Made by a program: the position numbers and the translations under genes
In this document: in pieces, positions 3,285-24,177 of the stretch
Position numbering within the stretch: the first letter of the stretch is position 1
Layout: each line of letters opens with the position of its first letter
Source of the DNA: Pseudomonadota bacterium
GTDB taxonomy: Bacteria; Pseudomonadota; Gammaproteobacteria; Burkholderiales; Burkholderiaceae_C
Direction of reading: 5' to 3'
NCBI GenBank assembly: GCA_041178825.1
Contig: JBEGUP010000001.1
Coordinates: forward strand, 1 to 27,169
Length of the DNA stretch: 27,169 bases
Notes under the pieces: generated by a model
The model's input: the letters and a program-made list of their open reading frames with translations, nothing else
What the model was told of the DNA's origin: nothing
Database searches by the model: none

Positions 3285-3310
3285 TGTTCTCAGTATTACG
3301 GGGTTTGAAA

Positions 3311-4244: not shown

Positions 4245-4270
4245 GCGTATTTAAATTTCACATTTCAAAC

Positions 4271-4582: not shown

Positions 4583-4639
4583 CTTGAACTCCTAAATTTC
4601 TAATAGCCGAATACTTATTGACTTAATGCTTAATGCGAA

Positions 4640-5107: not shown

Positions 5108-5206
5108 AATTTACTCCTGATTTGAAATCTTCAAAAAACTTTTTACAACTCGCTAGACTTACCTGCATAAATTAACACATTTTTAGCTTCTACGTTGATA
5201 CCGATA

Positions 5207-7634: not shown

Positions 7635-7647
7635 GGCTTGCTACTTA

Positions 7648-7974
7648 TTATTTAGCGCCAGCCAAAATCCACTTAGCGAGTTTTGTGGCATCTGCATCAG
7701 GTAACGCCGCTTGTGCAGGCATCGGGATTGGCCCGTATTTGCCAGAACCGCCGGCTTTGATGCTAGCTGCCAACTTGGCAACGTAGTCTTTTTCTTTTGC
7801 GTACTTCTCAGCAACAGCTTGATAAGCGGGACCTACCAACTTTTTATCCACTGCATGGCAGGCCATACAAGCATTCTTTTGTGCCAATGCTAAATCAGCA
7901 TGTGCTGGCATCGTAGAAGCGAAAACCGCGATTGAACTGACTACTAATTTCAAAATGACTGATTTGTATTGCAT
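7648..7974 (-). CDS. Class I cytochrome c (c551/c552-like), first gene of the sox operon
   Basis: Signal peptide ending AHA-D, CMACH, VGPAY, GPIPMP (Met ligand). Confidence 0.92.
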   Translation of the reverse strand: MQYKSVILKLVVSSIAVFASTMPAHADLALAQKNACMACHAVDKKLVGPAYQAVAEKYAKEKDYVAKLAASIKAGGSGKYGPIPMPAQAALPDADATKLAKWILAGAK

Positions 7975-7997
7975 GATAAATTTATATACTTAAGTTT

Positions 7998-8032
7998 ATA
8001 TATTAATATATTCTAATTGATATATAGAATAT
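7998..8032. promoter_or_regulatory. AT-rich palindromes upstream of the sox operon; candidate ArsR/SoxR-type operator
   Basis: Perfect 14-bp palindrome ATATATTAATATAT (7998-8011) overlapping ATATTCTA-N9-TAGAATAT (8008-8032). The region is so AT-rich that chance is possible. Confidence 0.35.
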
Positions 8033-8099
8033 GCATATATTAAATCGCGTATTTGCATACTGACAATCAGTATTTACCCTATTCTTGCAGGCTTGCAAC

Positions 8100-8132
8100 A
8101 AAAAAAGAGGCGTAGCAAAATGCTAACGCCTC
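8100..8132 (-). terminator. Rho-independent terminator of fccB
   Basis: Minus strand GAGGCGTTAGCA-TTT-TGCTACGCCTC followed by T7, about 30 nt after the fccB stop. Confidence 0.85.
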
Positions 8133-8163
8133 CTCTGTCAATGTCAAAAAACCGAATGACGAT

Positions 8164-9471
8164 TTAGGCCAAAGTATCAGCCCAAATGTTTTGCGCCCAG
8201 CTCTCGGCGTAAGCACCTTCCAACATAGTCACTTCTGGCTTCAAATCTATTGAAGACACGCCGCCAGAGCCGGCAACTGTCTTAAACGTCTTCTCAGCTG
8301 CTACATACTCGTGCACGCTGGCGACGTGGATGCAGTTTTTCGCATCGACCATGCTGTAGCAGGTGTTGGTCAACATCGGGTTAGGGTTCACTTCCCAACC
8401 ATTGAGCTGCGCTACGATGGCCGCCGCAGCCACTTTGGCTTGCGCATTTGCCATGTGTCCGCTCTTAGGCATGCCTGGCGCAATTTGGATGGAGTCACCC
8501 AAAACATGCACGTCTTTGGCAGCTGTTGACTCGAATGTGAGGTAGTTCACACCACACCAGCGACCATTGGCCATGTTGTTCAAGCCAGAGTTAACTGCAA
8601 TCAAACCTGCACGCATGTTTGGCAAAGCGTTGATGACGTTTGCTTTCGCATCTTCTTGGATTTCAAACTTGATAGTGCCAGTTTTGGCATCAATAGCCGT
8701 CACCTTGTGGTCACCACGGTACTCGATCATGCCTTTGTACTCATTGGCCCACACTTTTTTGAACAATGGGCCTTTGGATGTAACGTCTGGGTTGCCGTCC
8801 AAAATCAAAATTTTGCTCTTTGGTTTTGCTACTTTAAAGTAAGACGCAATCTGGCTGGCACGTTCGTACGGGCCGGGTGGGCAGCGGTATGGCGCAACTG
8901 GGATGGTAATAGCGTAAGTGCCACCGTCAGGCATGGCTTCGAGCTGTTTACGCAAAGTGGCCGTTTCTGCGCCCGCTTTCCAAGCTTGCACGATTTGACC
9001 ACTCGCATTGGCTGCAGCCAAGCCTTCGATGCTGCTCATCATCAAATCGATACCTGGGGAGACAACCAACTTGTCATACGCGATACTGCCACCGCTTGCT
9101 AATGAGACAGTTTTCTTAGCCGAGTCAATCTTACTGACCATGTCTTTAACCATGGTCACACCGTGCTTTTTAGACAAATGCTCGTAAGAGCTGGTGATAT
9201 CAGCCATCGATTTATGACCGCCTAAGACCATGTTGGACACAGGGCAAGAGATGAACGAAGCGTTTGGCTCAATCAACACCACGTCAATTTTGTACTGTGA
9301 CAGCACGCGGATGTATTTGGCTGCTGTAGCGCCACCGAAGCCACCGCCCACGATGACGACTTTCGCCTTGGATGGCATAGAAGTTGTGGCGCAACCAGCC
9401 AAGCCGAGCAAACTAAGTGCTGCTGCTGATTGCAGGATTTGACGACGTTGAAGATTATTTGTAGTTGTCAT
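8164..9471 (-). CDS. fccB: Flavocytochrome c sulfide dehydrogenase flavoprotein (FccB/SoxF)
   Basis: Tat QRRQ, VIVGGGFGG FAD motif, SCPVSN, YRCPPGPYERAS, KSGHMAN, NTCYS. Start moved to 9471 (MTTTNNLQRR) because the track start at 9516 overlaps fccA. Confidence 0.9.
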   Translation of the reverse strand: MTTTNNLQRRQILQSAAALSLLGLAGCATTSMPSKAKVVIVGGGFGGATAAKYIRVLSQYKIDVVLIEPNASFISCPVSNMVLGGHKSMADITSSYEHLSKKHGVTMVKDMVSKIDSAKKTVSLASGGSIAYDKLVVSPGIDLMMSSIEGLAAANASGQIVQAWKAGAETATLRKQLEAMPDGGTYAITIPVAPYRCPPGPYERASQIASYFKVAKPKSKILILDGNPDVTSKGPLFKKVWANEYKGMIEYRGDHKVTAIDAKTGTIKFEIQEDAKANVINALPNMRAGLIAVNSGLNNMANGRWCGVNYLTFESTAAKDVHVLGDSIQIAPGMPKSGHMANAQAKVAAAAIVAQLNGWEVNPNPMLTNTCYSMVDAKNCIHVASVHEYVAAEKTFKTVAGSGGVSSIDLKPEVTMLEGAYAESWAQNIWADTLA

Positions 9472-9484
9472 GTCAAATCCGTCC

Positions 9485-9820
9485 TTATTTCTTTTGAGCC
9501 GCAAAATAGTTGGCAATCATGGCGACTTGCGCATCGCTGTAGCCCTTGCTGAGCTGGTGCATCACTGTGGCAGGGCGTGTACCGTCTTTGAAGGCTTTCA
9601 TTTGCAAAATAATATTGGCAGCGGGCATACCGGCTAAAGTAACTACTGCAGATCCATTCGTCGCTCTGCCCTGCGTACCATGACAAGTCGCGCAAGTAGC
9701 TGAAACACCCGCTACATACAATTCATCTTTGCTTTGCGCTGAGGCTGTAACCCCTGCAAATGCAGCCAAGTTAGCTACCAAAATCGTAGCCAACTGAATT
9801 TTTATTCGTTTATTCAACAT
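9485..9820 (-). CDS. Monoheme cytochrome c subunit of flavocytochrome c (FccA-like)
   Basis: CATCHG, LAG, KAFKDG..ATVMHQL..GYSD; GGAGG SD; immediately upstream of fccB. Confidence 0.9.
   Translation of the reverse strand: MLNKRIKIQLATILVANLAAFAGVTASAQSKDELYVAGVSATCATCHGTQGRATNGSAVVTLAGMPAANIILQMKAFKDGTRPATVMHQLSKGYSDAQVAMIANYFAAQKK
9729..9791 (-). repeat. Degenerate copy G of the ~63-bp element, inside the FccA signal-peptide coding region
   Basis: Perfect GCTAC-N7-GTAGC (9790-9774), then TGGCTGCATTTGCAGGGGTTACA; 23/40 ungapped identity to copy C in the same codon phase. Confidence 0.5.
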
Positions 9821-9856
9821 GCTGTGCCTCCAATAATGTTTATATGCAATTTAAAA

Positions 9857-9891
9857 TATATAGTTATTCAACAAAACGAATATGACTATAT
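9857..9891. promoter_or_regulatory. Inverted repeat upstream of fccA (TATTC-N8-GAATA core); candidate sulfide-responsive ArsR operator
   Basis: ATATAGTTATTC-AACAAAAC-GAATATGACTATAT; core ATTC (9866-9869) N8 GAAT (9878-9881). Confidence 0.45.
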
Positions 9892-10007
9892 CCTATAGAC
9901 CAGTTTAGTACGAGTGCATTTTGTACGTAAAAACCCTAGAACTGACGTGAATTTACTTACACAAAATTGACAATACAACTTCAACGTGTTGGTTGAAAAT
10001 ATCAATT

Positions 10008-10070
10008 TACTATTATTTTAATAGCTGTTCAGGCAATAAATACGCCGGCTAGAGCCATAAAATGCATAAA
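10008..10070 (+). repeat. ~63-bp element, copy A (intergenic)
   Basis: tacTATTATTTTAATAGCtgttcAGGCAATAAATACGCCGGCTAG; 21/22 identity to 12594-12615 in the core. Confidence 0.9.
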
Positions 10071-10103
10071 AAAATCGGGTGCTTTATACAAGCTACCCGA
10101 TTT
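10068..10103 (-). terminator. Rho-independent terminator of the Bug gene
   Basis: Minus strand AAATCGGGTAGCTT-GTAT-AAAGCACCCGAT followed by T7. Confidence 0.85.
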
Positions 10104-10142
10104 CTGTTTTGCTAACTTAGCAAAATTATTACTGCGCCGCTT

Positions 10143-11111
10143 TTACTGCGCTGTTATACCCGCCGTTTTAATCACTTTGGTCCAGCGGGGAATTTCATTT
10201 GCTACAAACGCTGTGTAGGCTTTTGAGCCCTGAGCTGGAACCACAAAACCTTGGGATTCCAAGCGCTGTCTGATCGCTGGAGAATTCATCACTTGAACCA
10301 TGGCTGCTTCTAATTTTTCAACCACAGCGGGCGGTGTGCCCTTTTGAATTGACAAGCCCGACCAAGACAGAGATTCAAAGCCTGGATAGCCTGACTCAGC
10401 AATAGACGGCACATCTGGATACAAAGGATTGCGCTTAACCGTAGTTACTGCCAGTGGACGAAGTTTGCCCGCTTTAACGTGCTGCAATGCAACGTCTTGG
10501 TTGATGAACATGATTTTGATTGTGCCGCCCAACATATCAGTCATCATTGGGCCGCCTCCGCGATAGGGAATGCCAGTCAAAAATACCCCAGCAGTTTGCT
10601 TAAACAACTCCATCGCCATATGTCCTGATGAAGCATGGGTGAATCCATAGTCTAATTTACCGGGATTCGCCTTTGCATAAACGACCAAGTCTTTCAAAGT
10701 TTTGAACGGCAAACTTGGGTGAACCAGCAGTACATTGGGGCCAGTATGAACTTGAGTCAGGTGAATAAAATCTGTATTCGAGTTGTACTTCAAATTCGGA
10801 TCTAAGCCATGCGCCACTGCGTTTTGACCTACCCCAGTTTGGATAATCGTGTAACCGTCGGCTGGAGCTTTGCTTGCCCGCTCAGTGCCCACCACGCCAC
10901 CAGCACCACCTACGTTTTCAACCAGCACAGGTTGCTTTAAAATTTTGGCTAACTCATCATTCACCATACGTCCCATCACATCACTGGTGCCGCCGGGTGG
11001 AAATGGCACGATCAACTTGATCGGCTTGCTTGGGTATTCTTGCGCCAAAGCGCTCAGTGCAATCAAGCCAACCGCTGCTGCACTTACCAGTTTTAACCAT
11101 GATTTTTTCAT
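10143..11111 (-). CDS. Bug/TctC-family tripartite tricarboxylate transporter substrate-binding protein
   Basis: YPSKPIKLIVPFPPGGTSD, VENVGGAGG, APADGYT, IPYRGGGP, LRPLAVT, DVPSIAESGYPG. Confidence 0.95.
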   Translation of the reverse strand: MKKSWLKLVSAAAVGLIALSALAQEYPSKPIKLIVPFPPGGTSDVMGRMVNDELAKILKQPVLVENVGGAGGVVGTERASKAPADGYTIIQTGVGQNAVAHGLDPNLKYNSNTDFIHLTQVHTGPNVLLVHPSLPFKTLKDLVVYAKANPGKLDYGFTHASSGHMAMELFKQTAGVFLTGIPYRGGGPMMTDMLGGTIKIMFINQDVALQHVKAGKLRPLAVTTVKRNPLYPDVPSIAESGYPGFESLSWSGLSIQKGTPPAVVEKLEAAMVQVMNSPAIRQRLESQGFVVPAQGSKAYTAFVANEIPRWTKVIKTAGITAQ

Positions 11112-11170
11112 CTTTTCATCTCCTATTTATAAAACTAACTCTTTAACTAATTATTCAACCAAATCTACAA

Positions 11171-12436
11171 CTAAAACCGTGGCTTGACGGTTGACCAATC
11201 GGGTCTGAACTTTTGCATCTGCGTCACATCGTTACGGGTGCGAATGCGGCAGTTCAAAAATGCTTGGTGCAGCTCCGCCAGCTTGGCTTGGTCTAACTCT
11301 ACACCTAAACCCGGCTTGTCCGTCAAATGCACACAACCGCCCACGATAGGCACTTTGCCACCGACCAAAACTTCGTCGCTCTGCCACGGGTAATGGGTGT
11401 CACACGCATAAGTCAAATGATGCACCGAAGCCGCCAAATGCGTCATCGCCATCAAACTGATGCCCAAGTGCGAGTTCGAATGCATGGACAAGCCCATACC
11501 AAACGCCTGACAAGTCCGCGCCAAAGCCTGCGTCGCCCGCAAACCGCCCCAATAGTGATGGTCAGACAGCACAATTTGCACGGAATTCAATTCAACACTG
11601 CGCTTCAAATGGTCCCAAGACGTGACCACCATGTTCGTCGCCTGCAGCAACCCGGTCGCTTTGTAAACTTCGGACATACCGTCTAAGCCCGGCGTTGGGT
11701 CTTCGTAATATTCCAAATCATTTGCCAGCCGCTTGGCGATGCGAATACTGGTTGGAATCGACCAATTGCCGTTTGGGTCAATCCGCAGCTGGTGATTCGG
11801 GAAAGCGACTTTGAGCGCTTTGATCGCATCTGCCTCCTCATCCGGCGGAAAAACACCAGCTTTCAGCTTGATGCTCTCAAAGCCGTATTGGTCAATCATC
11901 TTCTTGGCTTGCGCGACGATTTGCGCGGGGTTCACCGCTTCGCCATATGGGTCGGGTGCATATTCGGGGTCAACACTAGCGTCCCATTTGTAGAACAAAT
12001 AAGCCGAATACGCGACTTTGTTGCGCACTGCGCCGCCCAATAATTCCACCAGCGGGATATTCAAGCTACGGGCTTGCAGGTCCAAAAACGCAACTTCAAA
12101 GCCTGAAAACACGCTGCTCGTCAAGTTGTCACCCATAGAACCAGGCGCGAGCTCCATTTCAACATGCGCGGTTTTGGTTAATTTAGATTCCGCAATCACC
12201 TTGGCCAGCAAACCATTCAAGTCAAAAGCCGATAAACCTACCAAACTGTCTTTCACCCGCGTCAACAAGTCCAATACAGGTGCGTCGCCATAGGTTTTAC
12301 CTAAGCCAACCATGCCGTTTGCACCCACAACCTCGATGATAGAGCGCAGCCCAAACGGCTCATGCACCCCAGCAGCGTTCAATAAAGCAGGGTCTTTGAT
12401 AGCAATGGGCGTGACGCGAACGGCGGAAATCTTCAT
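11171..12436 (-). CDS. Glucarate dehydratase-family enolase-superfamily enzyme (substrate uncertain)
   Basis: KLK motif (SIKLKAG), DPNGNW, YYEDP, ATNM, MHSNSHLG, CDTHYPW. Confidence 0.85.
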   Translation of the reverse strand: MKISAVRVTPIAIKDPALLNAAGVHEPFGLRSIIEVVGANGMVGLGKTYGDAPVLDLLTRVKDSLVGLSAFDLNGLLAKVIAESKLTKTAHVEMELAPGSMGDNLTSSVFSGFEVAFLDLQARSLNIPLVELLGGAVRNKVAYSAYLFYKWDASVDPEYAPDPYGEAVNPAQIVAQAKKMIDQYGFESIKLKAGVFPPDEEADAIKALKVAFPNHQLRIDPNGNWSIPTSIRIAKRLANDLEYYEDPTPGLDGMSEVYKATGLLQATNMVVTSWDHLKRSVELNSVQIVLSDHHYWGGLRATQALARTCQAFGMGLSMHSNSHLGISLMAMTHLAASVHHLTYACDTHYPWQSDEVLVGGKVPIVGGCVHLTDKPGLGVELDQAKLAELHQAFLNCRIRTRNDVTQMQKFRPDWSTVKPRF

Positions 12437-12486
12437 GAGAGCAAATTCAATCTTTTTAGAAAATCTAGAAAATACCGCTGATTATA

Positions 12487-12506
12487 GTCATCGGTTGTCT
12501 GATGAC
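12487..12506. promoter_or_regulatory. Inverted repeat upstream of the dehydratase; candidate operator
   Basis: GTCATCGG-TTGT-CTGATGAC (7/8 paired), 50-70 nt upstream of the ATG. Confidence 0.35.
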
Positions 12507-12570
12507 CCGTATTTTGCTGATTTACAGAAAAATTGTCAAGCTAAAACGCCGTGTGTAGAGTGAGTTTTTT

Positions 12571-12633
12571 TGCTATATTTTTAACAGCAATTTAGGCAAT
12601 AAATACGCTGGCTAGGTGCATATTTATCATCTA
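12571..12633 (+). repeat. ~63-bp element, copy B (intergenic)
   Basis: tgcTATATTTTTAACAGCaatttAGGCAATAAATACGCTGGCTAG; 33/40 ungapped identity to copy A. Confidence 0.9.
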
Positions 12634-12653
12634 AATTTAGTGACTTTAAAACC

Positions 12654-13997
12654 TTAATTGATTTTAAACTTCAAAGCCAGCGCTTTAGAAGCCACGCACT
12701 TGCCCTGCACTTGCCCGCCCTCTACGCCAAAGCGGAAGTGGATGCCTGCGTACAAACGCGACAGCGCTGCCTCATTGGCAGCCGCGCTGAAGTTAGTGAA
12801 GGTACGCGGACCCCAGCCACGGTCGTTGTGGGTGTTGTCAGTGAATGCCGTGTTTGCACCAAAGATTTGATTTAATACACCTGCTGCTGCACTAGATTGA
12901 ATAGAGTGGCCAGAAGGATATTCTGGGAACGGTGGCGTTGGCATCAACGGAGGTACCCAATTGCTGTCAAATGAACCCTGGACATAGCTCACGGGGCGCA
13001 ACACGTTGAGCGCATATTTGGTGGCCCAACCTGCAATAAAAGCATCTGCCATCGCAATATTCAAGCGAGCCAGTGTTTGACCGGCATCAGCCAAGCTGGC
13101 TTTGCGGGTTTTCAGCAAATCGTTGGCTATAAACAGCCAGTGGCCAGCTGGCGTGGGTGTTTTACCTGGATCATCCGCCCAATACAAGGCAAATTGGCGT
13201 TGCTCTTGGGTGGCTGCCTTGCTGATGGTGTAAACCTCTTGCGCACTTTTGTAAAAAACAGAGCTGGCGTCCTCCGAATACTCAGGCGGCGGCGGCGCTG
13301 GGCAGTCTTTTACCGATTTCAAAGCAAAGGGGCGATTTTCACCCCAATACGGCAACAGCGGTTTGGCAAACGCCGGCGGTGTGGCCGTCCAAAGCCCTGC
13401 CCCACTGGGCGGCACGTAGTTGGCACGGCTGCGACGCAGCGGTCCCCAAGCTTCATGGCCGCCGTCGGTACGTGCCCAGGTCATGATCGCCATGGCCATG
13501 AGCTTGCCGAAGGAAGTAGAACGGTTGATGATTTCGGGGGTGTAGGTGTTGGGGTCAAAGTCTTGACCATATTTCAACGGCAACAAGCGCTCAAGCTGGT
13601 CAATACGGCCTTTGTTTTCCGCCGTAGCGTTGCTGAACATCATGCGCGTCATGGTCGCCATTGAGGCATTTGCCACCGTCGGCCAGTGCAAAGACTCATC
13701 GGGTTGCGCCGCAGGTAAGGAGTTGAGCTCATTCAACTGCCCAGCCATGCTGGTATAGCCAGGCATACCTGGCACGATGGACTCATACAACGCCAACCCC
13801 AAATACCCAAAAGCACGCGATGCTACAGGCGGGCTAAAACCAGGGGTTTGCTGGGTTAGCGACAGCGCTAGGGACATCCACTCGGTCGCGACAGCGTTGC
13901 TATAGGTGTCTGCTGGGCGAGTTAAATTTTGCGATTGCGCTATTGAAAATGAAGCAAATAACGTAATTAAAACGCCGGATAAAAAACGTTTTATCAT
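12654..13997 (-). CDS. Vanadium-dependent haloperoxidase / PAP2-superfamily enzyme with Sec signal peptide
   Basis: K-x6-RP (KYALNVLRP), PPFPEYPSGHS, SRLYAGIH, FSPPVASR, FWAD-like YWADD. Start set at 13997 (MIKRFLSG), 1 nt after the upstream stop; the track start at 14129 overlaps the upstream gene. Confidence 0.88.
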   Translation of the reverse strand: MIKRFLSGVLITLFASFSIAQSQNLTRPADTYSNAVATEWMSLALSLTQQTPGFSPPVASRAFGYLGLALYESIVPGMPGYTSMAGQLNELNSLPAAQPDESLHWPTVANASMATMTRMMFSNATAENKGRIDQLERLLPLKYGQDFDPNTYTPEIINRSTSFGKLMAMAIMTWARTDGGHEAWGPLRRSRANYVPPSGAGLWTATPPAFAKPLLPYWGENRPFALKSVKDCPAPPPPEYSEDASSVFYKSAQEVYTISKAATQEQRQFALYWADDPGKTPTPAGHWLFIANDLLKTRKASLADAGQTLARLNIAMADAFIAGWATKYALNVLRPVSYVQGSFDSNWVPPLMPTPPFPEYPSGHSIQSSAAAGVLNQIFGANTAFTDNTHNDRGWGPRTFTNFSAAANEAALSRLYAGIHFRFGVEGGQVQGKCVASKALALKFKIN

Positions 13998-14000
13998 ATT
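13938..14000 (+). repeat. Degenerate copy F of the ~63-bp element, coinciding with the haloperoxidase start and signal peptide
   Basis: 36/63 ungapped identity to copy B; ATG at the same offset as in copies A, B and D; peptide LSGVLIT versus LAGVFIA in copy A. Confidence 0.5.
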
Positions 14001-15690
14001 ATTGAGCTTTCCAAGGTGAAACACCAGACGTTTTATCAATGGTGAAAAATGCATCAGCTGCGACCGTTTGCCACGGGCCAGCTTCAGAAAACGGCCATTG
14101 CACGCGGACTTTGACCGTGGTTGCAGCACCTAAGCCGAAATGCATCCAACCTGCATGCCCGCTGGCGTGACCGCCACCGACGGTGAGTTCTTGGCGGATG
14201 ATGCTTTGCTTGCCCAAGTGCTTCATGGCATCGCCCAAGTCAACCTCAACCCACGCGCCGACAGCGTCTTTGTTGCTGCCGTTTTGCTTCAGTTTGAGTT
14301 GCAGCCAATGCCCTGCGGTACCCATTTGCATTGGCTTGTCCACCGTGCCAGCACCCAGATTGCGCCACAGCTGCGCTTTGTCCCAGCGGTTCACCACGAC
14401 CATGTCGAGCAAGCCATCACCGTTCAAATCTGCCAACATGCCACCACGGCCACGCCTAACGCTGGCAATATTTGAGAGCTGACCTGACTCAAAAAATCGA
14501 CCATCAACTTGCTGCAGCAAAAGATTATTCGGGTCTAAAGCGGCAAAGTCTGGCATCGTGGAGATATTGCCTTTGACGATAAAGATATCTGCCAAGCCGT
14601 CATGGTTCACATCTGCGAATTGGGAATGCCAAGCGGTAGAAGGATGAATATCACCCCCAACATAGGGACGATGTGCGGTGACGCCGCGTTTGTAAGCCAT
14701 ATCAACATACTCAGGCTTATCGGCCTTGCCAGTGGCACTGAGTTGCAGCTTTTGTAGTTTGTTGTCCGCCATGCTGGTCAAATACAGCTCTGGGTAGCCG
14801 TCGCCATCGATGTCTTGGCTAGCAATGCCCATACCCCAAATTTGCATAGGCTTCCAGCCCTGCGCTTCTGTGTACAAACTAGGTTGCTGGCCAGTGGCAA
14901 TTTTCCAAAGCTGCTCTTGCCCACCTTTGTAAAATTCGCGGTCATTGCTGACGCGTAAATCTGGCGTGCCTTTACGCCCCCAATCTGAAAACAACATCGA
15001 CAAAGCGCAATACGACGGCTCTAGTTTGATCGGTGCAGCAAAGCCGCTGCCGGCGCTGTTCGGGCGCAACAAAACGCCCGGTGTGCAGCTACCCCAAGGA
15101 AATTCTGGTTTGGTGCGGTCAATATAAGTGCCTATCGCAAACGTCGGCCATTTTTGACCCCGCTCCCAAGTCGCAGAAAACGCCGTGTGCCATTCGTTAC
15201 CTGTTTTGACGCCCCATTTGCTGGTGGCACGCTCAAATTTGCAAGCGCCTAAACCACGGAAGACTTCAACCTCACCCACACGCAGCACCACCAAATCGGT
15301 GTTGCCATCGCTGTCAACATCCAAAGGGTACGCGCCTATGGCGTTGGTCAATTCCAAACCAGTGCGATCTTCTTGCAGCTTGATCGCACCGCCACGGGTA
15401 CTTTTGTTGCGGTAAAACTTGGCTTTGTTCACGCCAGCAGTGACATAGATTTCGGGTAAACCATCAGCATCACAGTCAAACGTGGCAACACCGCCACCCA
15501 CCATGAATTCGTCATCCCCTTCAAAGCGGCTTTGCAAGCCCGCGCTGTCGGTTTCTTCAACAAACTTGGGAATATTTGGCGTAGCAGGAACTGGCAGAAT
15601 AGCTAGTACGGCATTCTGTGCTGAAACTGGTGTCATAGCCGTCTGCAGGGCTAGGGAACTTAGCAGAATAGTTTTTAATAAATTAGACAT
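13999..15690 (-). CDS. CRTAC1-family protein (FG-GAP/DxDxDG repeats + C-terminal ASPIC/UnbV domain), exported
   Basis: Six Ca-binding-type repeats (DCDADG, DVDSDG, DWGRKG, DIDGDG, DVNHDG, DLNGDG); C-terminal HWLQLKL..NKDAVGA..GGGHASG..MHFGLG..VQWP; signal peptide ending VSA-Q. Confidence 0.9.
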   Translation of the reverse strand: MSNLLKTILLSSLALQTAMTPVSAQNAVLAILPVPATPNIPKFVEETDSAGLQSRFEGDDEFMVGGGVATFDCDADGLPEIYVTAGVNKAKFYRNKSTRGGAIKLQEDRTGLELTNAIGAYPLDVDSDGNTDLVVLRVGEVEVFRGLGACKFERATSKWGVKTGNEWHTAFSATWERGQKWPTFAIGTYIDRTKPEFPWGSCTPGVLLRPNSAGSGFAAPIKLEPSYCALSMLFSDWGRKGTPDLRVSNDREFYKGGQEQLWKIATGQQPSLYTEAQGWKPMQIWGMGIASQDIDGDGYPELYLTSMADNKLQKLQLSATGKADKPEYVDMAYKRGVTAHRPYVGGDIHPSTAWHSQFADVNHDGLADIFIVKGNISTMPDFAALDPNNLLLQQVDGRFFESGQLSNIASVRRGRGGMLADLNGDGLLDMVVVNRWDKAQLWRNLGAGTVDKPMQMGTAGHWLQLKLKQNGSNKDAVGAWVEVDLGDAMKHLGKQSIIRQELTVGGGHASGHAGWMHFGLGAATTVKVRVQWPFSEAGPWQTVAADAFFTIDKTSGVSPWKAQ

Positions 15691-16681
15691 TCACCCAAGC
15701 TCCGGTTTTTTCTGAGGCAAACAAGGCATCAATGACCTTCATATTCAAAATCGCGTCTTCAACGCCATAGGGCAAACTAATTTCGCCGCGTACGACTTTT
15801 GAAAACGCATCACCCTGCAAGCCATACATATTGCAAGCTGGCATGTTGTGCTTTTGCATAGACGAGCCGTTCAAAGTACTGCCATCATCCACAAAATAAT
15901 CAGTTTCACCACCCAACGGTGCATTGAACGGAATTTGAACTTCAATACGCTTTTTAGTTCCCACAACTTGCACGCGCTGGTGTGGTACTGATTGCGTTGA
16001 AACGGTGAAATCTAAACGTTTGCCATCGCCAAAATCAAGCAAAGCGCTGACGGTGCGATCCACTTTGAAGTCTGGATCGCGGTCAACCAAGGCGATCACG
16101 CGTTTGGGTTCAGCATCAAACAAAAACCGCCCAATCACAATCGGGTAGCAGCCGATATCGTACAGCGCACCGCCGCCGATTTCATACTTGTTGCGGATGT
16201 TGTTGGTGTCGCGATTGAAATACGAAAAGAACGCTTGCACGGTTCGCACATCACCCAATTCACCACTGCGCACACGTTCGCGCACTTGTAGCCACTGCGG
16301 GTGAAAGCGCACCATGAAAGCTTCCATGATATGCACTTTGTCCGCCACTTCACGCAGCTGCGCTGCTTCGTTGGCATTGATGGCAAACGGCTTTTCGCAC
16401 AAAACGTGTTTACCAGCACGAGCTGCCTGCAGCGTTAACGGTACGTGCAGATCGTTCGGCAAAGGGTTGTAAATGGCTTCAATCTCACGGTCAGCCAACA
16501 AGGCCTCATACGAACCATAAGCCTTAGGAATGCCCAGCTTAGCTGCCCATTCATCTGCTTTGCCAGGCGCACGCGAGGCGATGGCTCGCACATCGCAAAA
16601 CTCGCTTTGCTGCATAGCAGGGATAACTTTTTCCCAACCAATTTTGGCGGTACTAAGAATACCCCATACTACTTTTTTCAT
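15683..16681 (-). CDS. Gfo/Idh/MocA-family oxidoreductase (possible sugar dehydrogenase)
   Basis: WGILSTAKI, YNPLPNDLH, KHVLCEKP, EAFMVRFHP, GGGALYDIGCY. Confidence 0.92.
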   Translation of the reverse strand: MKKVVWGILSTAKIGWEKVIPAMQQSEFCDVRAIASRAPGKADEWAAKLGIPKAYGSYEALLADREIEAIYNPLPNDLHVPLTLQAARAGKHVLCEKPFAINANEAAQLREVADKVHIMEAFMVRFHPQWLQVRERVRSGELGDVRTVQAFFSYFNRDTNNIRNKYEIGGGALYDIGCYPIVIGRFLFDAEPKRVIALVDRDPDFKVDRTVSALLDFGDGKRLDFTVSTQSVPHQRVQVVGTKKRIEVQIPFNAPLGGETDYFVDDGSTLNGSSMQKHNMPACNMYGLQGDAFSKVVRGEISLPYGVEDAILNMKVIDALFASEKTGAWVNV

Positions 16682-16729
16682 AGCTATAGACCCAATAAAT
16701 ACGAGAACTACGTACCAATTTAATCAATA
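16667..16729 (+). repeat. ~63-bp element, copy E (overlaps the Gfo start codon and RBS region)
   Basis: tacTACTTTTTTCATAGCtatagACCCAATAAATACGagaact; 28/40 ungapped identity to copy A. Confidence 0.7.
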
Positions 16730-16753
16730 AATTTAAATGTTTTAAAAATGCAT

Positions 16754-18070
16754 TTAAATGAACGAATTCAACAAGTTTTCTAGGTTTTCTTGACGACCAG
16801 AAACTGGGCGCGTATCAGTGTTGCTCTGCAACACACGTGCCGCCACCGCATCCAAGCTTAACTTGCCTGCCATGACGTCACCACCAAAGCTTGACTTCCA
16901 GCCCGCATAACGGTCTTGACGTGCTTTCTCAAAGCGACCATCTTGAATCATTTTTTCGGCAATCAACAAAGCACGCGCTGTCACGTCCATGCCACCAATG
17001 TGGCCATAAAACATGTCTTCAGGTTCAATCGATTGACGACGCACTTTGCTGTCAAAGTTCACACCACCGGTGGTAAAACCACCTGCTTGCAGGATTTGAT
17101 ACATCACCAAGGCGGTTTCTGGAATGCTATTTGGGAACTGGTCTGTGTCCCATTGGCACTGCATGTCGCCACGGTTCATATCAATAGAGCCAAAAAGTCC
17201 CATGTCAATGGAAGTTGCAATTTCATGCTCAAAGCTGTGTCCAGCCAATGTGGCGTGGTTGGCTTCGATGTTGACTTTGACTTCTTTCTCCAAACCATGT
17301 TTGAGCAAGAAGCCGTACACAGTAGCAACGTCAAAATCATACTGGTGCTTGGTCGGTTCACGTGGTTTTGGTTCAAGCAAAATCGCACCTTTGAAGCCGA
17401 TTTTGTGTTTGTAGTCCACAACCATATTCAAGAATCGACCCATTTGGTCAAGCTCTTGCCCCATTTGCGTGTTTAACAGAGTTTCATACCCTTCGCGGCC
17501 GCCCCACAACACATAGTTTTCACCACCAAGCTTGAGCGTTGCATCCATTGCTTCTTTGACTTGTAGCGCACCGAGTGCAAAGATCTCTGGATCAGGATTG
17601 GTTGAAGCGCCAGACATAAAGCGGCGGTGGCTGAACAAGTTAGCCGTGCCCCACAAAAGCTTCATGCCCGTTTCTTGCTGCTTAGCGGCCAACACATCAA
17701 CCATCGCGTGCAGATTGTTGACACTGTCACGCGGGGTTGCGCCTTCTGGTGCAACGTCGCGGTCATGGAAGCAATAGTAAGGTGCACCTAGTTTTTGAAA
17801 AAATTCAAACGCAGCGTCTGCTTTGGCTTTCGCCGCAGTCATGGGGTCTGCAATGTGCTGCCAAGGGCGCTCAAATGTGCCGTCGTAGCCAAACGGGTCA
17901 AAACCGTTCCAGCAATAGCTGTGCCAGTAGCAAACAGCAAAACGCAAATGGTCTTCCATGCGTTTACCCAAAACCATGCGGTCTTTGTCATACCATTTGA
18001 AGGCGAGAGGATTTTTAGATTCAGCGCCCTCAAATTTGATGGGGGCGACAGCGTTGAAATACGAGCTCAT
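16754..18070 (-). CDS. xylA: Xylose isomerase (class II)
   Basis: [62 protein letters not shown]. Confidence 0.98.
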
Positions 18071-18155
18071 GTCATGTCCTTGATAGGTAGTTGTTGTTGA
18101 GTAGAGTTTTTTGTAGTCTCAGAGAACAGTTTTCTGTTTCTTTTTATAAATTATT

Positions 18156-19619
18156 TTATTGTTGAATAGATTTCAAAGCGGGATAGATGGCACGAAAGCG
18201 TGCGTACCTTGGCGCTAAAATTTTCAATTCTTCGGCATCTGGTTTGTAGATTTTTGATATTTTTGGCGTCAAACATACATCAGCCATAGCAGCTCCGGTT
18301 GCTAACCAAGCCAATCGCGCAGCACCCAATGCACCGCCAGCGGCAGATTCTTCATGTGTGACGATGTTGATATTCAACAAAGTAGCCAATTGCTGCGCCC
18401 ACAAGGCACTGCGCGCACCACCGCCCACCAACGAAAGTTGTTTAACTTCACAGCCTGCAGCTTGCAAGGCACGCATGCCATCAGCAAGGCCGAAGCTGAC
18501 GCCTTCAATCACAGCATATGAAAGCGCCGCAGCATCCGTGTCATTACTAAGTTCATGAAAACTACCACGCGTCACCGCATCGTTGTGCGGCGTGCGTTCA
18601 CCGCTTAAATACGGCAAGAACAGTGGCGCGCTTGCTCGTTGTGCAGCGTTTAATCCACTGGCTTGTGCTTCTAATACTGCTTCAGAGCTTGCACCCAAAA
18701 GCTTAGTCACCCACTGCAAGCAACTTGCGGCCGACAGCATCACACTCATTTGATGCCAACGGTCTGGCACTGCATGGCAAAAAGCGTGGGTTGCGCTGGC
18801 AGCATTTGGTTGGTATGTCGGGGTGACGACAAACAACACACCACTTGTACCCAAGGACAAGAATCCTTGCCCTGCATTAACAGCACCCATACCCACTGCG
18901 CTGGAAGCATTGTCACCCGCACCGCCTGCAACAACGATACCTGATTGCAAACCCGATGTTAAAGCGGCTTGCGATGTTAAGTTACCACTTGGTGAGCTGC
19001 CCTCAACCAAACGCGGCATCTGCATTTCTGTCAAATCTGTGAGCTTGAGTAAATCCTGAGACCACGCACGTTTTTCAACGTCCAACCACATGCTGCCGCT
19101 GGCATCAGACATGTCGCACACATGCTCGCCTGTTAGCATGAAACGGATGTAATCTTTAGGCAGAATGATTTTGGCAATCTTTGAGAATACATCTGGCTCA
19201 TACTTCGCCAACCAGCGCAGCTTCGGCGCTGTAAAACCCGGCATAGCCAAACTGCCAGCAATTTGCGGCAGCAGGGGTAGTTCAGTCATCATGTCTTCAC
19301 ATTCTTTGGCAGAGCGAGTATCGTTCCACAAAATTGCCGGTCGTAAAACCTGGTTACTGGCATCCAGCAGCACAGCCCCATGCATCTGCCCAGATAAACC
19401 AATGGCTTGCACCTGCGAGTACTGTGCAGGAAACTTGCTCTTTAACTGCGCCAAGGCTGTTAGCGTAGCCGTCCACCATGCGGCAGGGTCTTGTTCGCTG
19501 TGACCTGCATGCGGCCTGGAAATCTCCAATGACGAACCAGTTACACCAACCACTTGATGCTTGCTATCTAGCAGCAAGACCTTAACTTCTGACGTACCAA
19601 CGTCAATGCCTAAATACAT
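18156..19619 (-). CDS. xylB: Xylulokinase
   Basis: YLGIDVGTS, GLSGQMHG, AILWND, GGAGDNA, SLGTSG, PYLSGERTP; adjacent to xylA. Confidence 0.96.
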   Translation of the reverse strand: MYLGIDVGTSEVKVLLLDSKHQVVGVTGSSLEISRPHAGHSEQDPAAWWTATLTALAQLKSKFPAQYSQVQAIGLSGQMHGAVLLDASNQVLRPAILWNDTRSAKECEDMMTELPLLPQIAGSLAMPGFTAPKLRWLAKYEPDVFSKIAKIILPKDYIRFMLTGEHVCDMSDASGSMWLDVEKRAWSQDLLKLTDLTEMQMPRLVEGSSPSGNLTSQAALTSGLQSGIVVAGGAGDNASSAVGMGAVNAGQGFLSLGTSGVLFVVTPTYQPNAASATHAFCHAVPDRWHQMSVMLSAASCLQWVTKLLGASSEAVLEAQASGLNAAQRASAPLFLPYLSGERTPHNDAVTRGSFHELSNDTDAAALSYAVIEGVSFGLADGMRALQAAGCEVKQLSLVGGGARSALWAQQLATLLNINIVTHEESAAGGALGAARLAWLATGAAMADVCLTPKISKIYKPDAEELKILAPRYARFRAIYPALKSIQQ

Positions 19620-20894
19620 TCAAAGCTCCTGAATTTGAGAGGGTGAGTTGTGCCGTTTATGGGGCTTTTGCGAGCTTGAAGGGGTCATAAAACGAGTAAC
19701 TACTGGTTTGACATACACTGCAGCACTGATATCTTCAACAGCAAGTTTGTCAGCTATAGCTTCAGCTGTTTGTTGTGTCGCTTTTCCAACCGGCATGGGC
19801 CGTAAAAACCGATGCCACACAAGAGCGGCAGAGCCGACAGCTGCTGCCAATAAACCATATTTTGCAGCACGCACTTTGGTGACCGGCATATCAGCTAATT
19901 TTGAGTAATTAGCCAAGGTTGCAACCGCTTTGGTTATCATTTCTGGATTATTGACGCATGATTGCCCGCCCAAAACAATGGTGCGCGGATTGAACATGAC
20001 ATCTAAATTTTGAATCAGTACGCCCAGATACTTTCCAGCTAAGTCTGTATTTTTAGCAGACTTCAGCGCACGCGAACCTATAAAAGTCTCAGCACAACCT
20101 TGCCGACCGCAAGAGCAAAGTGGGCCGTCAATTTGCAATGTGGTATGCCCAATTTCGCCTGCCATGCCGATAGCACCAACAAACAACCTATCATTCAAAA
20201 TAATGCCAGCACCAACACCCACATCGCAACTCACAAAAATCAAAGGATCCTCGCCCTCTTGGGTCGAAAATTCATACTCGCTTAGCGCAGCAGCGTCAGC
20301 ATCGTTTTGAAGATGTATGGGCACTTGAGGGACACCAATGCGAAAAAATGCATCAGATATCATGCTCAAGAAGGGAACTTCACGCCATGCCAAGTTAGGT
20401 GCAAATCTAACAATACCAGCATCTTCATTGATAGCGCCGGGCAAGCAAACACCGACACCTGAAAGCAGTAATTTTTTTGCCGCAAGTACTTGGCATTGCT
20501 CAAACACCAATTGAGCAGTTTGTTGGCACACACGTTCGGGCAAATTAGAAGCCAGAGGCACTTGCGCATGTGATACAACCGCGCCCGTAAGCGTGACGCT
20601 CACGACGCGCAGGCATTCGACTGCAATTTCAACCCCCATTAACACGCGTGTTTCAGCATCTAACTGCAACGGTGTTGAAGGTCGCCCCATGCCTTCAACA
20701 GCCACGGGAGCGCAGGCCTCTGTCATCCACTTTTCAGCCAATAACTCGCGCACTAAAGCGCTAACGGTTGATTTTGTCAACCCACTTTTACGAGATAAGT
20801 CAGCCCGGGACAGACCAGACTCTGAACGCATCAAGCGCAGCAGAACACTACGGTTGATACGTTTGAGAAGTTGCTGATCGCCCGTGGTTTTCAT
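19620..20894 (-). CDS. ROK-family transcriptional regulator (XylR-like)
   Basis: N-terminal HTH ([18 protein letters not shown]), [34 protein letters not shown]. Confidence 0.93.
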
Positions 20895-20906: not shown

Positions 20907-21692
20907 TTACCGAGCTGGCCTGTCAGTTTGCGGTTTACCGACTGGTTGTTTACCAGAAATGATCATCCCCAACACTTCGTCCTCAGTCACATCAGCCGTT
21001 TTATACATACCGAGTGATTTACCATTCTTCATAACAACCAAGCGGTCGCTCAATGCAAACACATCGTGCATGTCATGGCTGATCAAGAAAATACCAACAC
21101 CTTCTGCTTTAAGCTGGCGCACCAAGTTGCCAACCATTGCGGTCTCCTCAGGGCCAAGTGCTGCTGTAGGCTCGTCCATGATCAAAATACGTGCGTTGAA
21201 ATAAATTGCGCGAGAAATCGCCACCACTTGACGCTGTCCACCTGACAAGCGACGAACCGGAATACGCACATTAGTGAAGTTTTTATTCAAACGATGAAAT
21301 ACTTTACGAGCATCCGCATCCATGCGATGGTCATCTAGTGTGCGCCATTTGGTCAACAACTCACGTCCTAAAAACAAATTAGCAACTGAATCCAAGTTGT
21401 CTGCCAAAGCCAAGGTTTGATAAATCGACTCAATACCCAAATTCTGTGCATCAGCGGGTGAACGCACATGAACTTTTTCACCAGAAATAACGACATCGCC
21501 GCTATCAATGGGGTAGGCACCCGCCAACATTTTCATGAGCGTTGATTTACCTGCTCCGTTGTGCCCCAAGACCGCAACGACTTCACCGGGATAGAGGGTC
21601 ATGCTGACATCGTCAACCGCATGAACGCCACCAAACGATTTTTTGATGTTGCGCAGCTCTACTAAACATTTTGAAGTATCTACGCCGCTCAT
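20907..21692 (-). CDS. xylG: Xylose ABC transporter ATPase (single ABC domain)
   Basis: [22 protein letters not shown]. Start set at 21692 (AGGAGA SD, ATGA overlap with the xylH stop). Confidence 0.9.
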
Positions 21693-22879
21693 ACTGTGTC
21701 TCCTGTCCACTTACGGTAAGCCACGTCAAAAACGACGGCAGCAATCAAAACCTGACCAATGATGATGTATCGCGTACCGATAGAAACATCTAACAACAGC
21801 ATGCCGCTATCGATACATTGCATGATTAATGCACCCAGGACTGAGCCGATGATCGTTCCACTACCCCCCGCTAAGGCTGTTCCACCAATCACAGTTGCAG
21901 CAATAACCAATAGCTCCAAGTTATTTCCCAATGAATTGGTACCGGCATTCAATCGTGATATAGATACGATGGCAGCAATAGTGATCAATATCGCTAATAA
22001 CAAGAACATCAGCATAGTTACGCGCTTGACAGGGATACCAACCAGCTCAGCGGCATCTGGGTTACCACCGATTGCAAAAACGTAGCGACCAAAACGTGTG
22101 CGGTGCACCAAAAATGACACAAACAATGCAACGGCTGCCCAAATCAACACCGGAATCGGAATACCTTGCGCTTCTGGTTTATTGGGAATGTGGTAAGCAT
22201 TCATCACTGCAACAAATGCCATGATGATGATGACAGGCACCAATACAATCAATGAATCCGTTAGAAGCGAATTTGTCGGAACGCCATATGCTTTTTTAGC
22301 ATTTCGCTTGCTCAACATGCTGTAAACTAAAGCCAAACACATCAAGCCACCTATCACCCAGCTTGCTTTGGTGCCAATACCGCCGTTGTAACCGCCACCA
22401 AGCTTGAGAAAAAACTCATCAGCTAGTGGCTGCGTTTTTCCATCAGCCACCAAATACGCGGCACCTCGGAACGACATCAATCCGCCCAAAGTAACCACAA
22501 ATGTGGGTACACCAATGTATGCGGTCAAAGCGCCTTGGTACATCGACACTGCTAGAGCAGCTGCGAGACCAGCCAAACACGCTGCTGGCCAAGTCCAGTT
22601 GGCCGTGTACATCAAAAACGCAATCAAAACACCCACAAAACCCATGACTGAGCCGACAGATAAATCTATATGCCGCGCAACGATAATGAGCACCATGATG
22701 GTGGCCAAAATACCAACCACAGCTGTTTGCTGGGCGATGTTGTACAAGTTTTCAGGCGACAAGAAAATGCCATCTGAGAAAAAATTAAAAACAAGTGCGA
22801 CCACTATCAACACTCCCGACATCAACACCATGCGCCAGTCAATCTGGGCACGTTTGATAGATTGAATTGCATCATTCAT
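21689..22879 (-). CDS. xylH: Xylose ABC transporter permease
   Basis: [46 protein letters not shown]. Confidence 0.93.
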
Positions 22880-23012: not shown

Positions 23013-24032
23013 TTATTTACAAACAGCAACTTTCGCGCCGTCGATACCTTTGCACAAAGCATCTTTCTTGATGTAACCGGCTTTCAAAACAACATCCAAG
23101 TTGTCTTTAGTCACTGGGATTGGCTTCAAAAAGATAGACTTCATAGTCATCTTCTTAGGGCCACCTGCCCAGTCAGCAGCACCAGTTACAGCCTTGCCAG
23201 CGCCCAACTCAACAGCAGCTTTCGCTGCAGCTGTGCCGAGGTCAGCAGAGTTTTTCCAGACTGACACAGTTTGTGTACCAGCTGCAACACGGTTCAAAGC
23301 AGCGTGGTCGCCGTCTTGACCAGACACTGGAATACCTTGCAAGCCCTTAGCTGTCAAAGCAGCCACTACACCGCCGGCCATGCCGTCGTTTTGTGCCACA
23401 ACAGCGTCAACCTTGTTGGCGTTCTTAGTCAGGATCTGCTCCATGTTTTTCTGAGCATTTTGTGGATTCCAGCCAGATGTGAACTCTTCGCCAACAATCT
23501 TCACGTCACCCTTTTTGATAGCGTCAGCCAACACTTCAGCTTGGCCTTCGCGCAAGAACGCAGCATTGTTATCACCTGGGTCGCCCTTGATGATGGCGTA
23601 GTTGCCTTTTGGCTTGGCCTTCAAGATTTCACGAGCAGTCATACGGCCCACTTCTTTGTTGTCAAAAGTGATGTAAGTTGTGCCTGCTGCTTCAAACAAA
23701 CGGTCATACGCGATGACTGGAATTTTTTGCTGTGCAGCTTTGTTGACCGCTGGCAAGATAGCGTCTTTGTCTTTTGCCAAGATGATCAAGACTTTTGCGC
23801 CTTTGGTGATCAAACCGTCGATGTCAGCCAATTGCTTTTCAGCAGAAGCGCCAGCGTCAGAATAGATGTATTTCGCGCCTGATTTTGCCAATTCAGCCTT
23901 GATAGCTGCTTCGTCAGTCTTCCAACGCTCTTCTTGGTAAGCGTCAAAGCTCACGCCGACAACCAATTGTGCGAAAGATGAACCAGCTGCCATGGCCAAA
24001 GCCAAAGCGGTCAGAGTACGTTTAAATTGCAT
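23013..24032 (-). CDS. xylF: Xylose ABC transporter periplasmic binding protein
   Basis: QEERWKTD, VIAYDRL, FDNKEVG, KGDPGDNNA, QNDGMA, SGQDGD, QTVSVWK. Confidence 0.95.
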   Translation of the reverse strand: MQFKRTLTALALAMAAGSSFAQLVVGVSFDAYQEERWKTDEAAIKAELAKSGAKYIYSDAGASAEKQLADIDGLITKGAKVLIILAKDKDAILPAVNKAAQQKIPVIAYDRLFEAAGTTYITFDNKEVGRMTAREILKAKPKGNYAIIKGDPGDNNAAFLREGQAEVLADAIKKGDVKIVGEEFTSGWNPQNAQKNMEQILTKNANKVDAVVAQNDGMAGGVVAALTAKGLQGIPVSGQDGDHAALNRVAAGTQTVSVWKNSADLGTAAAKAAVELGAGKAVTGAADWAGGPKKMTMKSIFLKPIPVTKDNLDVVLKAGYIKKDALCKGIDGAKVAVCK

Positions 24033-24069: not shown

Positions 24070-24177
24070 GTTTTAGCTAAAACCTGCCGCTTTCAACAAC
24101 TAAAGCTATTTAGTTCAGCAAGAAAACGAAGTATCCACTTATTTTCGCGAAAGTTTATTAGGGGAAACGCTAGTTTC
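24070..24177. promoter_or_regulatory. Cluster of palindromes in the xylF/Stealth divergent promoter region
   Basis: GTTTTAGCTAAAAC (24070-24083), AACTAAA-GCTA-TTTAGTT (24098-24115), TTTCGCGAAA (24143-24152), GAAAC-GCTA-GTTTC (24164-24177). Confidence 0.5.

Follow-up and report, generated by a model that had tools for sequence, protein, structure and literature searches.

Why does a xylose operon of a freshwater bacterium end in genes for two exported proteins, a CRTAC1-like propeller and a relative of vanadium haloperoxidases (VHPOs)? This question is raised by a stretch of 27,169 nucleotides (assembly GCA_041178825.1, contig JBEGUP010000001.1, positions 1 to 27,169), hereafter the window, which comes from a freshwater metagenome-assembled genome that is 72% complete and consists of 351 contigs, and whose genus relatives are labelled Polaromonas sp. 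(Comamonadaceae). On its minus strand, the genes follow in the order xylF, xylH, xylG, ROK-type xylR, xylB, xylA, gfo, the CRTAC1-like gene (13999..15690, 563 aa; Pfam FG-GAP and UnbV_ASPIC) and the VHPO-like gene (12654..13997, 447 aa; Pfam PAP2, with PF22778 VCPO_2nd in homologues). The xyl genes (xylFGH, xylR, xylB, xylA) are co-linear, and gfo, propeller and VHPO genes are appended to them with no terminator-like site in between. On balance, the two exported proteins probably form one module that carries out a peroxide-linked step tied to pentose acquisition, in which the VHPO-like protein would be the peroxidase.

The tight packing of these genes, described in an earlier note made from the letters of this DNA alone, was found as stated there. 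The stop codon of gfo (15683..16681, minus strand; a Gfo/Idh/MocA NAD(P) oxidoreductase by Pfam, without signal peptide) lies over the start of the propeller gene in an overlap of 8 nt (15683-15690), and the propeller stop codon TAA (14001-13999) is separated by a single base from the VHPO start codon ATG at 13997. Between xylA and gfo lies an AT-rich spacer of 72 nt (16682..16753), in which no hairpin plus T-run was found on the minus strand. The longest VHPO open reading frame (ORF) begins further upstream, at GTG 14129; position 13997 was chosen as start because the full-length homologues (447-449 aa) and the signal peptide both fit it. By inspection, the N-termini of the two proteins are Sec-like, again in agreement with the note (MIKRFLSGVLITLFASFSIA followed by QS and MSNLLKTILLSSLALQTAMTPVSA followed by QN), with predicted signals at about residues 1-20 of the VHPO-like and 1-24 of the CRTAC1-like protein. 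Both N-termini are of low confidence in the AlphaFold2 models.

Sequence comparison and modelling identify the VHPO-like protein as a full-length member of the VHPO architecture. It matches the Zobellia vanadium iodoperoxidase 4CIT with E 6.7e-63 (phmmer) and Pfam PAP2 with 36.9 bits (cut-off 27.2), and both helical bundles of the architecture (VCPO_2nd and the PAP2-like domain) are present at full length. The predicted model (pLDDT 92.5) superimposes on 4CIT/4USZ with a TM-score of 0.81 normalised to the query (TMq) and 0.88 to the target (TMt) at a root-mean-square deviation of 2.9 Å; NapH1, NapH3, XhnO11 and the Curvularia vanadium chloroperoxidase (VCPO) follow. The putative active site is formed by K327, R334, S362-G363-H364, R414 and H420, and the vanadate-ligand columns are invariant or at least 90% conserved across 45 relatives that are 34-71% identical to the protein. 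These residues correspond to K324, R331, S358, G359, H360, R410 and H416 of Zg-VIPO1 (4CIT/4USZ, Zobellia galactanivorans), and a second-shell Trp and Phe (W324 and F357 in the window) are conserved as well. Like Zg-VIPO1, the protein has about 450 aa, is monomer-sized, has two helical bundles and is exported. Unlike Zg-VIPO1, to which it is about 31% identical over the structural alignment, it belongs to a freshwater betaproteobacterial host, and its gene lies in a xylose operon together with that of an obligatory propeller partner; we know of no propeller partner for Zg-VIPO1. Acid phosphatases are far more distant: 7F17, 7F18, PhoN and PhoC cover about one third of the model (TMq 0.26-0.35) and reach a phmmer E of 5e-4. 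With 447 aa the protein does not have the form of a class A acid phosphatase, which is a single PAP2 domain of about 230 aa.

The CRTAC1-like protein was matched by Pfam FG-GAP_3 (1.4e-21), FG-GAP and UnbV_ASPIC (4.8e-10), and is predicted to be a seven-bladed FG-GAP Ca2+-loop propeller followed by a C-terminal UnbV/ASPIC domain (pLDDT 89.5). Its sole outstanding structural relative is murine CRTAC1 (9ETN; Z 37.6 against 28.5 for the next match, 451 residues aligned with VIA-align; Foldseek E 3e-21). The domain order and secretion are shared with animal CRTAC1 and with the bacterial ASPIC/UnbV proteins annotated as 'enediyne biosynthesis protein E4'. In contrast to animal CRTAC1, to which it is 19% identical, no match to an EGF-like C-terminal domain was found in the protein, which ends about 17 residues past the ASPIC domain; it is therefore a bacterial ASPIC/UnbV-type member and not an orthologue of the animal protein. 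In contrast to the E4 context, no enediyne polyketide genes lie near the propeller gene. A function could not be taken from the other structural neighbours, which are generic seven-bladed propellers; aldos-2-ulose dehydratase 4A7K (Z 26.5) scored about as well as WD40 proteins. Among 41 propellers of the xyl-linked type, which form a tight clade of their own, 95 of the 563 positions are invariant. The aspartate triads of the predicted Ca2+ loops (Dx[DN]xDG; D126/D128/D132, D360/D364/D368 and D421/D425/D429) show little or no variation, and outside the loops the invariant residues include four Cys (C73, C150, C202, C228), two His of the ASPIC domain (H508, H517), W167, W354, Y254 and a polar motif R246...W262. 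R246-W262, D309, R341, H508 and H517 make up a conserved patch of the propeller. Between classes of bacteria the propeller is 50-75% identical, the VHPO-like protein about 40%.

Pairing of the two genes was surveyed in the best 80 of 594 genome loci that encode VHPO-like relatives, with neighbour maps made by tblastn. A propeller gene was found adjacent on the same strand in 41 of these 80 loci, contig ends and one run of N being allowed for. In a tree of 86 VHPO-type sequences, all 12 members of the Comamonadaceae clade, including that of the window, are paired with the propeller first, and all 29 of the Alphaproteobacteria clade (after tblastn correction) with the VHPO first, often with a 4-nt overlap. 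One Cyclobacteriaceae locus is likewise paired, and relatives from Bacteroidota, Chloroflexota and Actinomycetota are mostly unpaired in this survey. Further, four CRTAC1::VHPO fusions of 951-1388 aa were found among representatives of 50%-identity clusters (P0244, P0266, P0284 and P0310), all with the propeller N-terminal; they occupy separate places in the VHPO tree, and for three of the four an uninterrupted gene was confirmed on the contig. The propellers of the xyl-linked clade are about 22-26% identical to those of the fusions. Fusion P0244 has an ABC sugar importer on one side and GH43, GH51 and araA genes on the other, and P0266 lies directly 3' of another ABC sugar importer. The conserved pairing proposed in the earlier note was thus found in both gene orders and as fusions in four unrelated lineages, and judged from gene order the adjacency exceeds chance by a wide margin. 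Other conserved neighbours were discarded as module parts: the recurrent ORF clusters in the 80 loci, xyl-type genes aside, were shadow ORFs or lineage-specific genes, among them flagellar, AsmA and aldo-keto reductase genes. A separate observation concerns locus L101, where one strand (1885-18220) carries a complete arabinose/arabinan locus with genes for an FGGY kinase, an AraD-type aldolase, an ABC importer, GH43, GH51, GH43 and AraA, with a CRTAC1::VHPO fusion mid-locus whose VHPO domain is sister to a Fodinibius one.

The attachment to a xylose operon, also claimed in the note, recurs in differing arrangements and in two classes. Within the genus the VHPO gene is carried by 10 of 18 genomes. 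Eight loci with enough upstream flank show the same order of xyl genes, gfo, propeller and VHPO, a ninth (L014) ends after gfo, and five genomes that lack the VHPO gene lack xylA too. In Comamonadaceae, xyl genes (xylF/H/G/R/B/A) flank the pair in all nine loci with adequate flank, in three arrangements: the pair stands at the 3' end of the xyl operon, divergent from xylFHGRB (L023, L025, L030) or directly 5' of xylFHG (L024, L026-L028, L031). A fourth arrangement, 3' of xylBAFHG, is seen in L120. Rhodobacterales loci (L052, L056, L067, L068, L070, L079) have a xylR that faces away from xylFHG(B)A-VHPO-propeller, and several Rhizobiales/Hyphomicrobiales pairs also adjoin xylFHG. The window resembles the classical ROK-XylR xylose operons (xylFGH, xylAB) in its xylF, xylH, xylG, ROK regulator, xylB, xylA and operator-like repeat, and differs from them in the appended gfo, propeller and VHPO genes, two of which encode exported proteins without a role in the textbook pathway.

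The propeller was also followed on its own in an even, unselected sample of 400 genomes of the phylum, with E <= 1e-60 defining a close homologue. Besides the window's own genome, 15 genomes encode a close propeller. Eleven of the 15 genes lie within about 10 kb of xyl genes, many of them overlapping the stop codon of a ROK-type xylR, and 12 have a VHPO, cytochrome c peroxidase (CCP) or DHOR gene as neighbour. The VHPO was the neighbour in three loci; in seven, a di-haem CCP of the CCP_MauG family was found instead, and in two a DHOR-type di-haem peroxidase stood directly upstream. Right after xylA in L125 and L130, a CCP gene takes the position of the VHPO gene in Rhodobacterales, no CCP or DHOR gene was found in 83 VHPO loci, and the propeller tree has four subclades that track the type of partner. 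As di-haem peroxidases replace the VHPO at the same position, the VHPO-like protein is judged to be a peroxidase and not a PAP2 phosphatase, and the plain acid phosphatase considered in the note becomes unlikely. As VHPO, bCCP/MauG-like and DHOR partners all use H2O2, the module probably performs a peroxide-linked step coupled to pentose uptake. The core of the note's proposal, a two-protein system of a propeller with a vanadate-type enzyme, is supported, but its constant part is the propeller and not the VHPO. The CCP-type partners are about equally close to MbnH (6E1C, E 6e-27), MauG and true CCPs; sorting them as MauG-like or true CCP was given up, the scores being similar. No solved relative of the DHOR-type partner was found.

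Two side observations were made in this sample. In seven alphaproteobacterial loci (L125, L129-L134), the xylR and propeller genes share a few bases at their junction and are oriented divergently from xylFHG, so that an exported propeller appears to be co-translated with the cytoplasmic xylose regulator. In L126 (1-5500; L124 is of the same genus), the propeller stands beside genes for a SLAC1/TehA-type anion channel, DUF6065 and a FAD_binding_4 plus BBE oxidase. The latter family typically makes H2O2 from sugars or alcohols, and L126 may represent a fourth, peroxide-producing context.

Transcription in situ was followed in contigs assembled from four freshwater metatranscriptome runs that had been selected for holding the window's DNA. 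Such contigs cover gfo, propeller and VHPO at low depth without mismatch. They bridge xylA-gfo (X15, 16541-16847; X16, 16659-16910), gfo-propeller (15569-15887) and propeller-VHPO (13877-14239), in line with the co-transcription with the xyl genes that the note had proposed. Over xylF the word depth rises to 2454 and exceeds that of the other operon genes by two to three orders of magnitude, being about 1000-fold deeper than over gfo, propeller and VHPO. Over the GlucD-like gene (11422-12369) it is about zero while the VHPO gene is covered; this range between xylF and a silent neighbour suggests that the libraries report RNA rather than DNA carry-over. Xylose uptake appears to be a major activity of the population in situ, and xylF of close relatives may add to the depth. 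The carriers originate from river and lake plankton. Upstream of xylF, a motif search found an operator-like inverted repeat (TTCGT-N11-AACTAA, 24110..24130, minus strand), which we take to resemble the classical ROK-XylR or Bacillus xyl operator. Of 11 Comamonadaceae regions, seven contain the 21-bp motif TT(A/C)GT-N11-AACTAA, compared with 0.2 on average after shuffling, and the site 5' of xylF recurs in L023, L025, L027, L028, L030 and L031. Candidate second sites were seen, by eye only, in divergent Rhodoferax regions.

How the module might work can be sketched as follows. The propeller and the VHPO-like protein would each be a subunit of a single exported module, with the periplasm as its default location, whose genes form the 3' end of the operon xylFHG-xylR-xylB-xylA-gfo-propeller-VHPO. 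The propeller would be the conserved core, and the VHPO one of at least three interchangeable H2O2-using partners, the others being of the bCCP/MauG and DHOR types. The VHPO-like protein would act as a peroxidase with vanadate and H2O2, most simply oxidising halide to hypohalous acid, and not as a PAP2 phosphatase. Our preferred specific model, put forward tentatively, is an oxidase/peroxidase couple: the propeller may bind or turn over a xylose-derived substrate and make or meet H2O2, which a dedicated partner docked on it would consume. A bolder version, which we regard as possible but doubtful, makes the CRTAC1-type propeller a new redox enzyme of the periplasm, with pentoses or a compound derived from them as its substrate and in need of a dedicated peroxide-using partner. 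That partner would either remove the H2O2 made by the propeller or create or re-activate a protein-derived cofactor, and VHPO, bCCP/MauG-like and DHOR proteins would be interchangeable in this role. Of the purposes suggested in the note, peroxide chemistry in general is favoured, while neither lignocellulose or humic attack nor halogenation nor H2O2 defence was shown; its analogies to the Curvularia enzyme and to enediyne clusters add nothing testable.

MauG acts on methylamine dehydrogenase and MbnH on MbnP, making a protein-derived cofactor or a metal site. The module resembles the pairs MauG/pre-methylamine dehydrogenase and MbnH/MbnP in that a periplasmic H2O2-using enzyme is encoded beside, and would act with, a specific partner protein. 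The likeness is one of gene logic only: here the enzyme would use vanadate and not haem, and its partner is a CRTAC1-type propeller. The nearest physiological precedent is Arenibacter sp. C-21, whose iodine uptake depends on glucose, O2 and Ca2+; a haloperoxidase working together with a membrane-bound glucose oxidase was proposed for it (PMC5064120). This proposed chain from sugar and O2 through H2O2 to a haloperoxidase, the Ca2+ requirement and the presence of Zg-VIPO homologues agree with the module, whereas the sugar is glucose and not xylose, the organism is a marine flavobacterium, no responsible genes were identified and no propeller is known to be implicated.

Several observations weigh against this reading as a whole. 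The vanadate-binding residues are common to PAP2 phosphatases and do not discriminate between the two families, and the VHPO fold is not always halogenating, NapH3 (8CXL) being listed as a homologue that catalyses alpha-hydroxyketone rearrangement. Iodide and bromide are scarce in freshwater. No recognisable redox cofactor site was found in the propeller. For the physical complex expected in the note, structure prediction gave weak support: the median ipSAE was 0.50 (best control 0.01), a mark reached by 58 of 80 solved complexes and two of 110 mismatched pairs, and runs 1 and 2 share 92% of contacts. Against the complex, the score lies in the weak band, and run 3 disagreed at 0.05. Three of the 15 sampled propeller loci (L124, L126, L128) are without a peroxidase neighbour, and the FAD/BBE oxidase near the L126 propeller is not predicted by the oxidase model. 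Roughly one in two alphaproteobacterial pairs stands among unrelated neighbours, with xyl genes absent from the surrounding 8 kb. As to expression, the runs were chosen for their content, and assembled contigs cannot prove a single transcript. No second operator-like site was found in the window, and none near gfo or the propeller gene; several other Comamonadaceae have their XylR-operator-like site downstream of the pair. Induction by xylose is thus no more than a possibility.

Five other explanations were weighed against the same data. The partner may do nothing but scavenge environmental H2O2 that reaches the periplasm during pentose use, with the propeller as an accessory for docking or for halide or electron relay. 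H2O2 reactivity is indeed all that VHPO, CCP and DHOR have in common, and xylose and arabinose, whose loci are both involved, both feed into xylulose-5-P. H2O2 is known to attack Rpe and is present in sunlit waters (PMC8115020), and the carriers come from plankton of rivers and lakes. Such pure peroxide defence would leave the constant and most conserved part, the propeller with its invariant positions, unexplained, and the hypohalous acid that a VHPO produces exceeds H2O2 in toxicity. Moreover, E. coli Ccp is presented as enabling the respiratory chain to use H2O2 as terminal oxidant and is only moderately active, so it is no obvious scavenger, which counts against defence (PMC8115020); we consider this explanation unlikely. 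The partner might instead modify or re-activate the propeller, which would then be the working periplasmic enzyme, as with MauG and MbnH or the copper-radical oxidases. In the latter, for example galactose oxidase, a radical cofactor is re-oxidised by peroxidases. The CCP-type partners, as near to MauG and MbnH (6E1C) as to true CCPs, the invariant Trp, Tyr, Cys and His outside the Ca2+ loops, and the contact implied by the fusions and the predicted complex all speak for maturation. But the oxidant produced by a VHPO is diffusible, no role as a protein maturase is known for such an enzyme, and no cofactor site is demonstrated in the propeller, which makes this explanation quite improbable.

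The setting of fusion P0244 among GH43, GH51 and araA genes and the association with pentose importers would suit an oxidative attack on polymers, the lignocellulose or humic reading of the note. In it, the propeller binds polymers that bear xylose or arabinose (hemicellulose, lignin-carbohydrate or humic material, algal exopolymers), and the peroxidase releases pentoses that the ABC importer takes up; some FG-GAP propellers are lectins. However, neither a glycoside hydrolase nor an outer-membrane export route is encoded in the window or in nearly all proteobacterial loci, and with no more than a Sec signal both proteins stay in the periplasm, which only small solutes reach, so that we hold polymer attack to be decidedly improbable. 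A periplasmic PAP2 acid phosphatase, for instance one that frees pentoses from phospho-sugars or nucleotides bound by the propeller, could be argued from the Pfam match to PAP2, from the catalytic residues shared by both families and from the title of entry 3BB0, according to which apo-VCPO can dephosphorylate. Yet sister loci hold di-haem peroxidases and never phosphatases in the place of the VHPO, and the match to VHPOs is full-length (TM 0.81-0.88) while acid phosphatases cover about one third (TMq 0.35); a phosphatase is very unlikely. Finally, two accessory exported genes might merely hitch-hike beside xyl genes in a variable island. Within the genus the block belongs to the accessory genome (10 of 18 genomes carry it), its G+C content is slightly raised, and half of the alphaproteobacterial pairs lie elsewhere in the genome. 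This is set against pairing in both gene orders, four fusions, at least four xyl arrangements in two classes and the unselected sample, in which 11 of the 15 propeller genes have xyl genes no more than 10 kb away; judged from these comparative data, which contradict it, the absence of any functional tie is hardly credible.

The remaining genes of the operon, all on the minus strand, were assigned as follows. xylA (16754..18070) matches the xylose isomerase model NCBIfam TIGR02630 with 678 bits (cut-off 533). xylB (18156..19619) encodes an FGGY xylulokinase (Pfam FGGY_N, FGGY_C), and the next gene (19620..20894) a XylR-type ROK-family regulator with an N-terminal winged helix-turn-helix (Pfam ROK, MarR_2, HTH_24). 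The genes of a xylose-type ABC importer, xylG (20907..21710), xylH (21689..22879) and xylF (23013..24032; the xylose-binding protein), were assigned from their translations and their synteny with xylA and xylB in the genus and in other classes. For the gfo product every NCBIfam match stays below cut-off, XylDh_Gfo6 being the best; the gene is syntenic within the genus and ends the xyl operon in other Comamonadaceae (L028, L031).

At the other end, a spacer of 217 nt (12437..12653) 3' of the VHPO gene, with a promoter-like site (12539-12511), is likely the 3' boundary of the unit. Beyond it lie the GlucD-like gene, which encodes a glucarate-dehydratase-like member of the enolase superfamily and stays under every NCBIfam cut-off, and a gene for a TctC-type binding protein (together 10143..12436). 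They were rejected as parts of the module, having a promoter-like site of their own, being silent in the RNA contigs and occurring in genus relatives where xyl genes are absent; a role in an acid-sugar pathway is possible. The higher G+C content suggested by spot checks in the note holds for the VHPO gene (0.539) and the propeller gene (0.522) against the window (0.478), but the rise is small and common to the GlucD-like gene (0.524). A reading of horizontal transfer from G+C content was dropped, as the rise amounts to only about 5 points and the neighbouring gene has it too. A dispersed intergenic repeat was also noticed: copies at 10031-10052 and in the 217-nt spacer at 12594-12615 (22 nt) are 95% identical, a further copy at the SoxX start (3224-3259) matches over 36 nt at 86%, and an 11-nt core lies at 16693-16703 in the spacer between xylA and gfo. 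This repeat probably causes the chimeric joints 10053<->16754 and 16688<->10035 in RNA contigs of run X18.

In a full-text literature search, no paper was found that links CRTAC1/ASPIC with a haloperoxidase, a haloperoxidase with xylose or FG-GAP, or a cytochrome c peroxidase with a xylose operon. Both proteins are new members of known families; what has no earlier description is the module itself, the place of the propeller at its core and its link to pentose loci. To our knowledge, no molecular function has been established for the CRTAC1/ASPIC-UnbV family, be it in bacteria or in animals, and few physiological roles have been assigned to bacterial VHPOs. The module may be kin to peroxidase-plus-partner or oxidase-plus-peroxidase gene pairs, and there is a real chance of a new enzyme function in the CRTAC1 family.

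Taken together, gene order, fusion and partner substitution tie two orphan families to each other and to a well-understood sugar pathway. The module thereby becomes a concrete genetic problem, with cultured carriers in Rhodoferax saidenbachensis, R. bucti, Pseudotabrizicola, Tabrizicola, Gemmobacter and Rhizobium rhizophilum. Of these, R. saidenbachensis and R. bucti have the divergent type, Pseudotabrizicola alkalilacus and Tabrizicola oligotrophica the xylA-VHPO-propeller type, and in Tabrizicola aquatica the pair stands apart from xyl genes. If the propeller is a redox enzyme, this would be the first molecular function for CRTAC1/ASPIC-UnbV, a family that includes a human osteoarthritis marker, and would give bacterial VHPOs a physiological role beyond halogenated natural products. 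Should the module produce or use up H2O2 or hypohalous acid while pentoses are being used, it would bear on the cycling of peroxide and organohalogens in lakes and rivers, in which the abundant freshwater Comamonadaceae and Rhodobacterales would then be involved.

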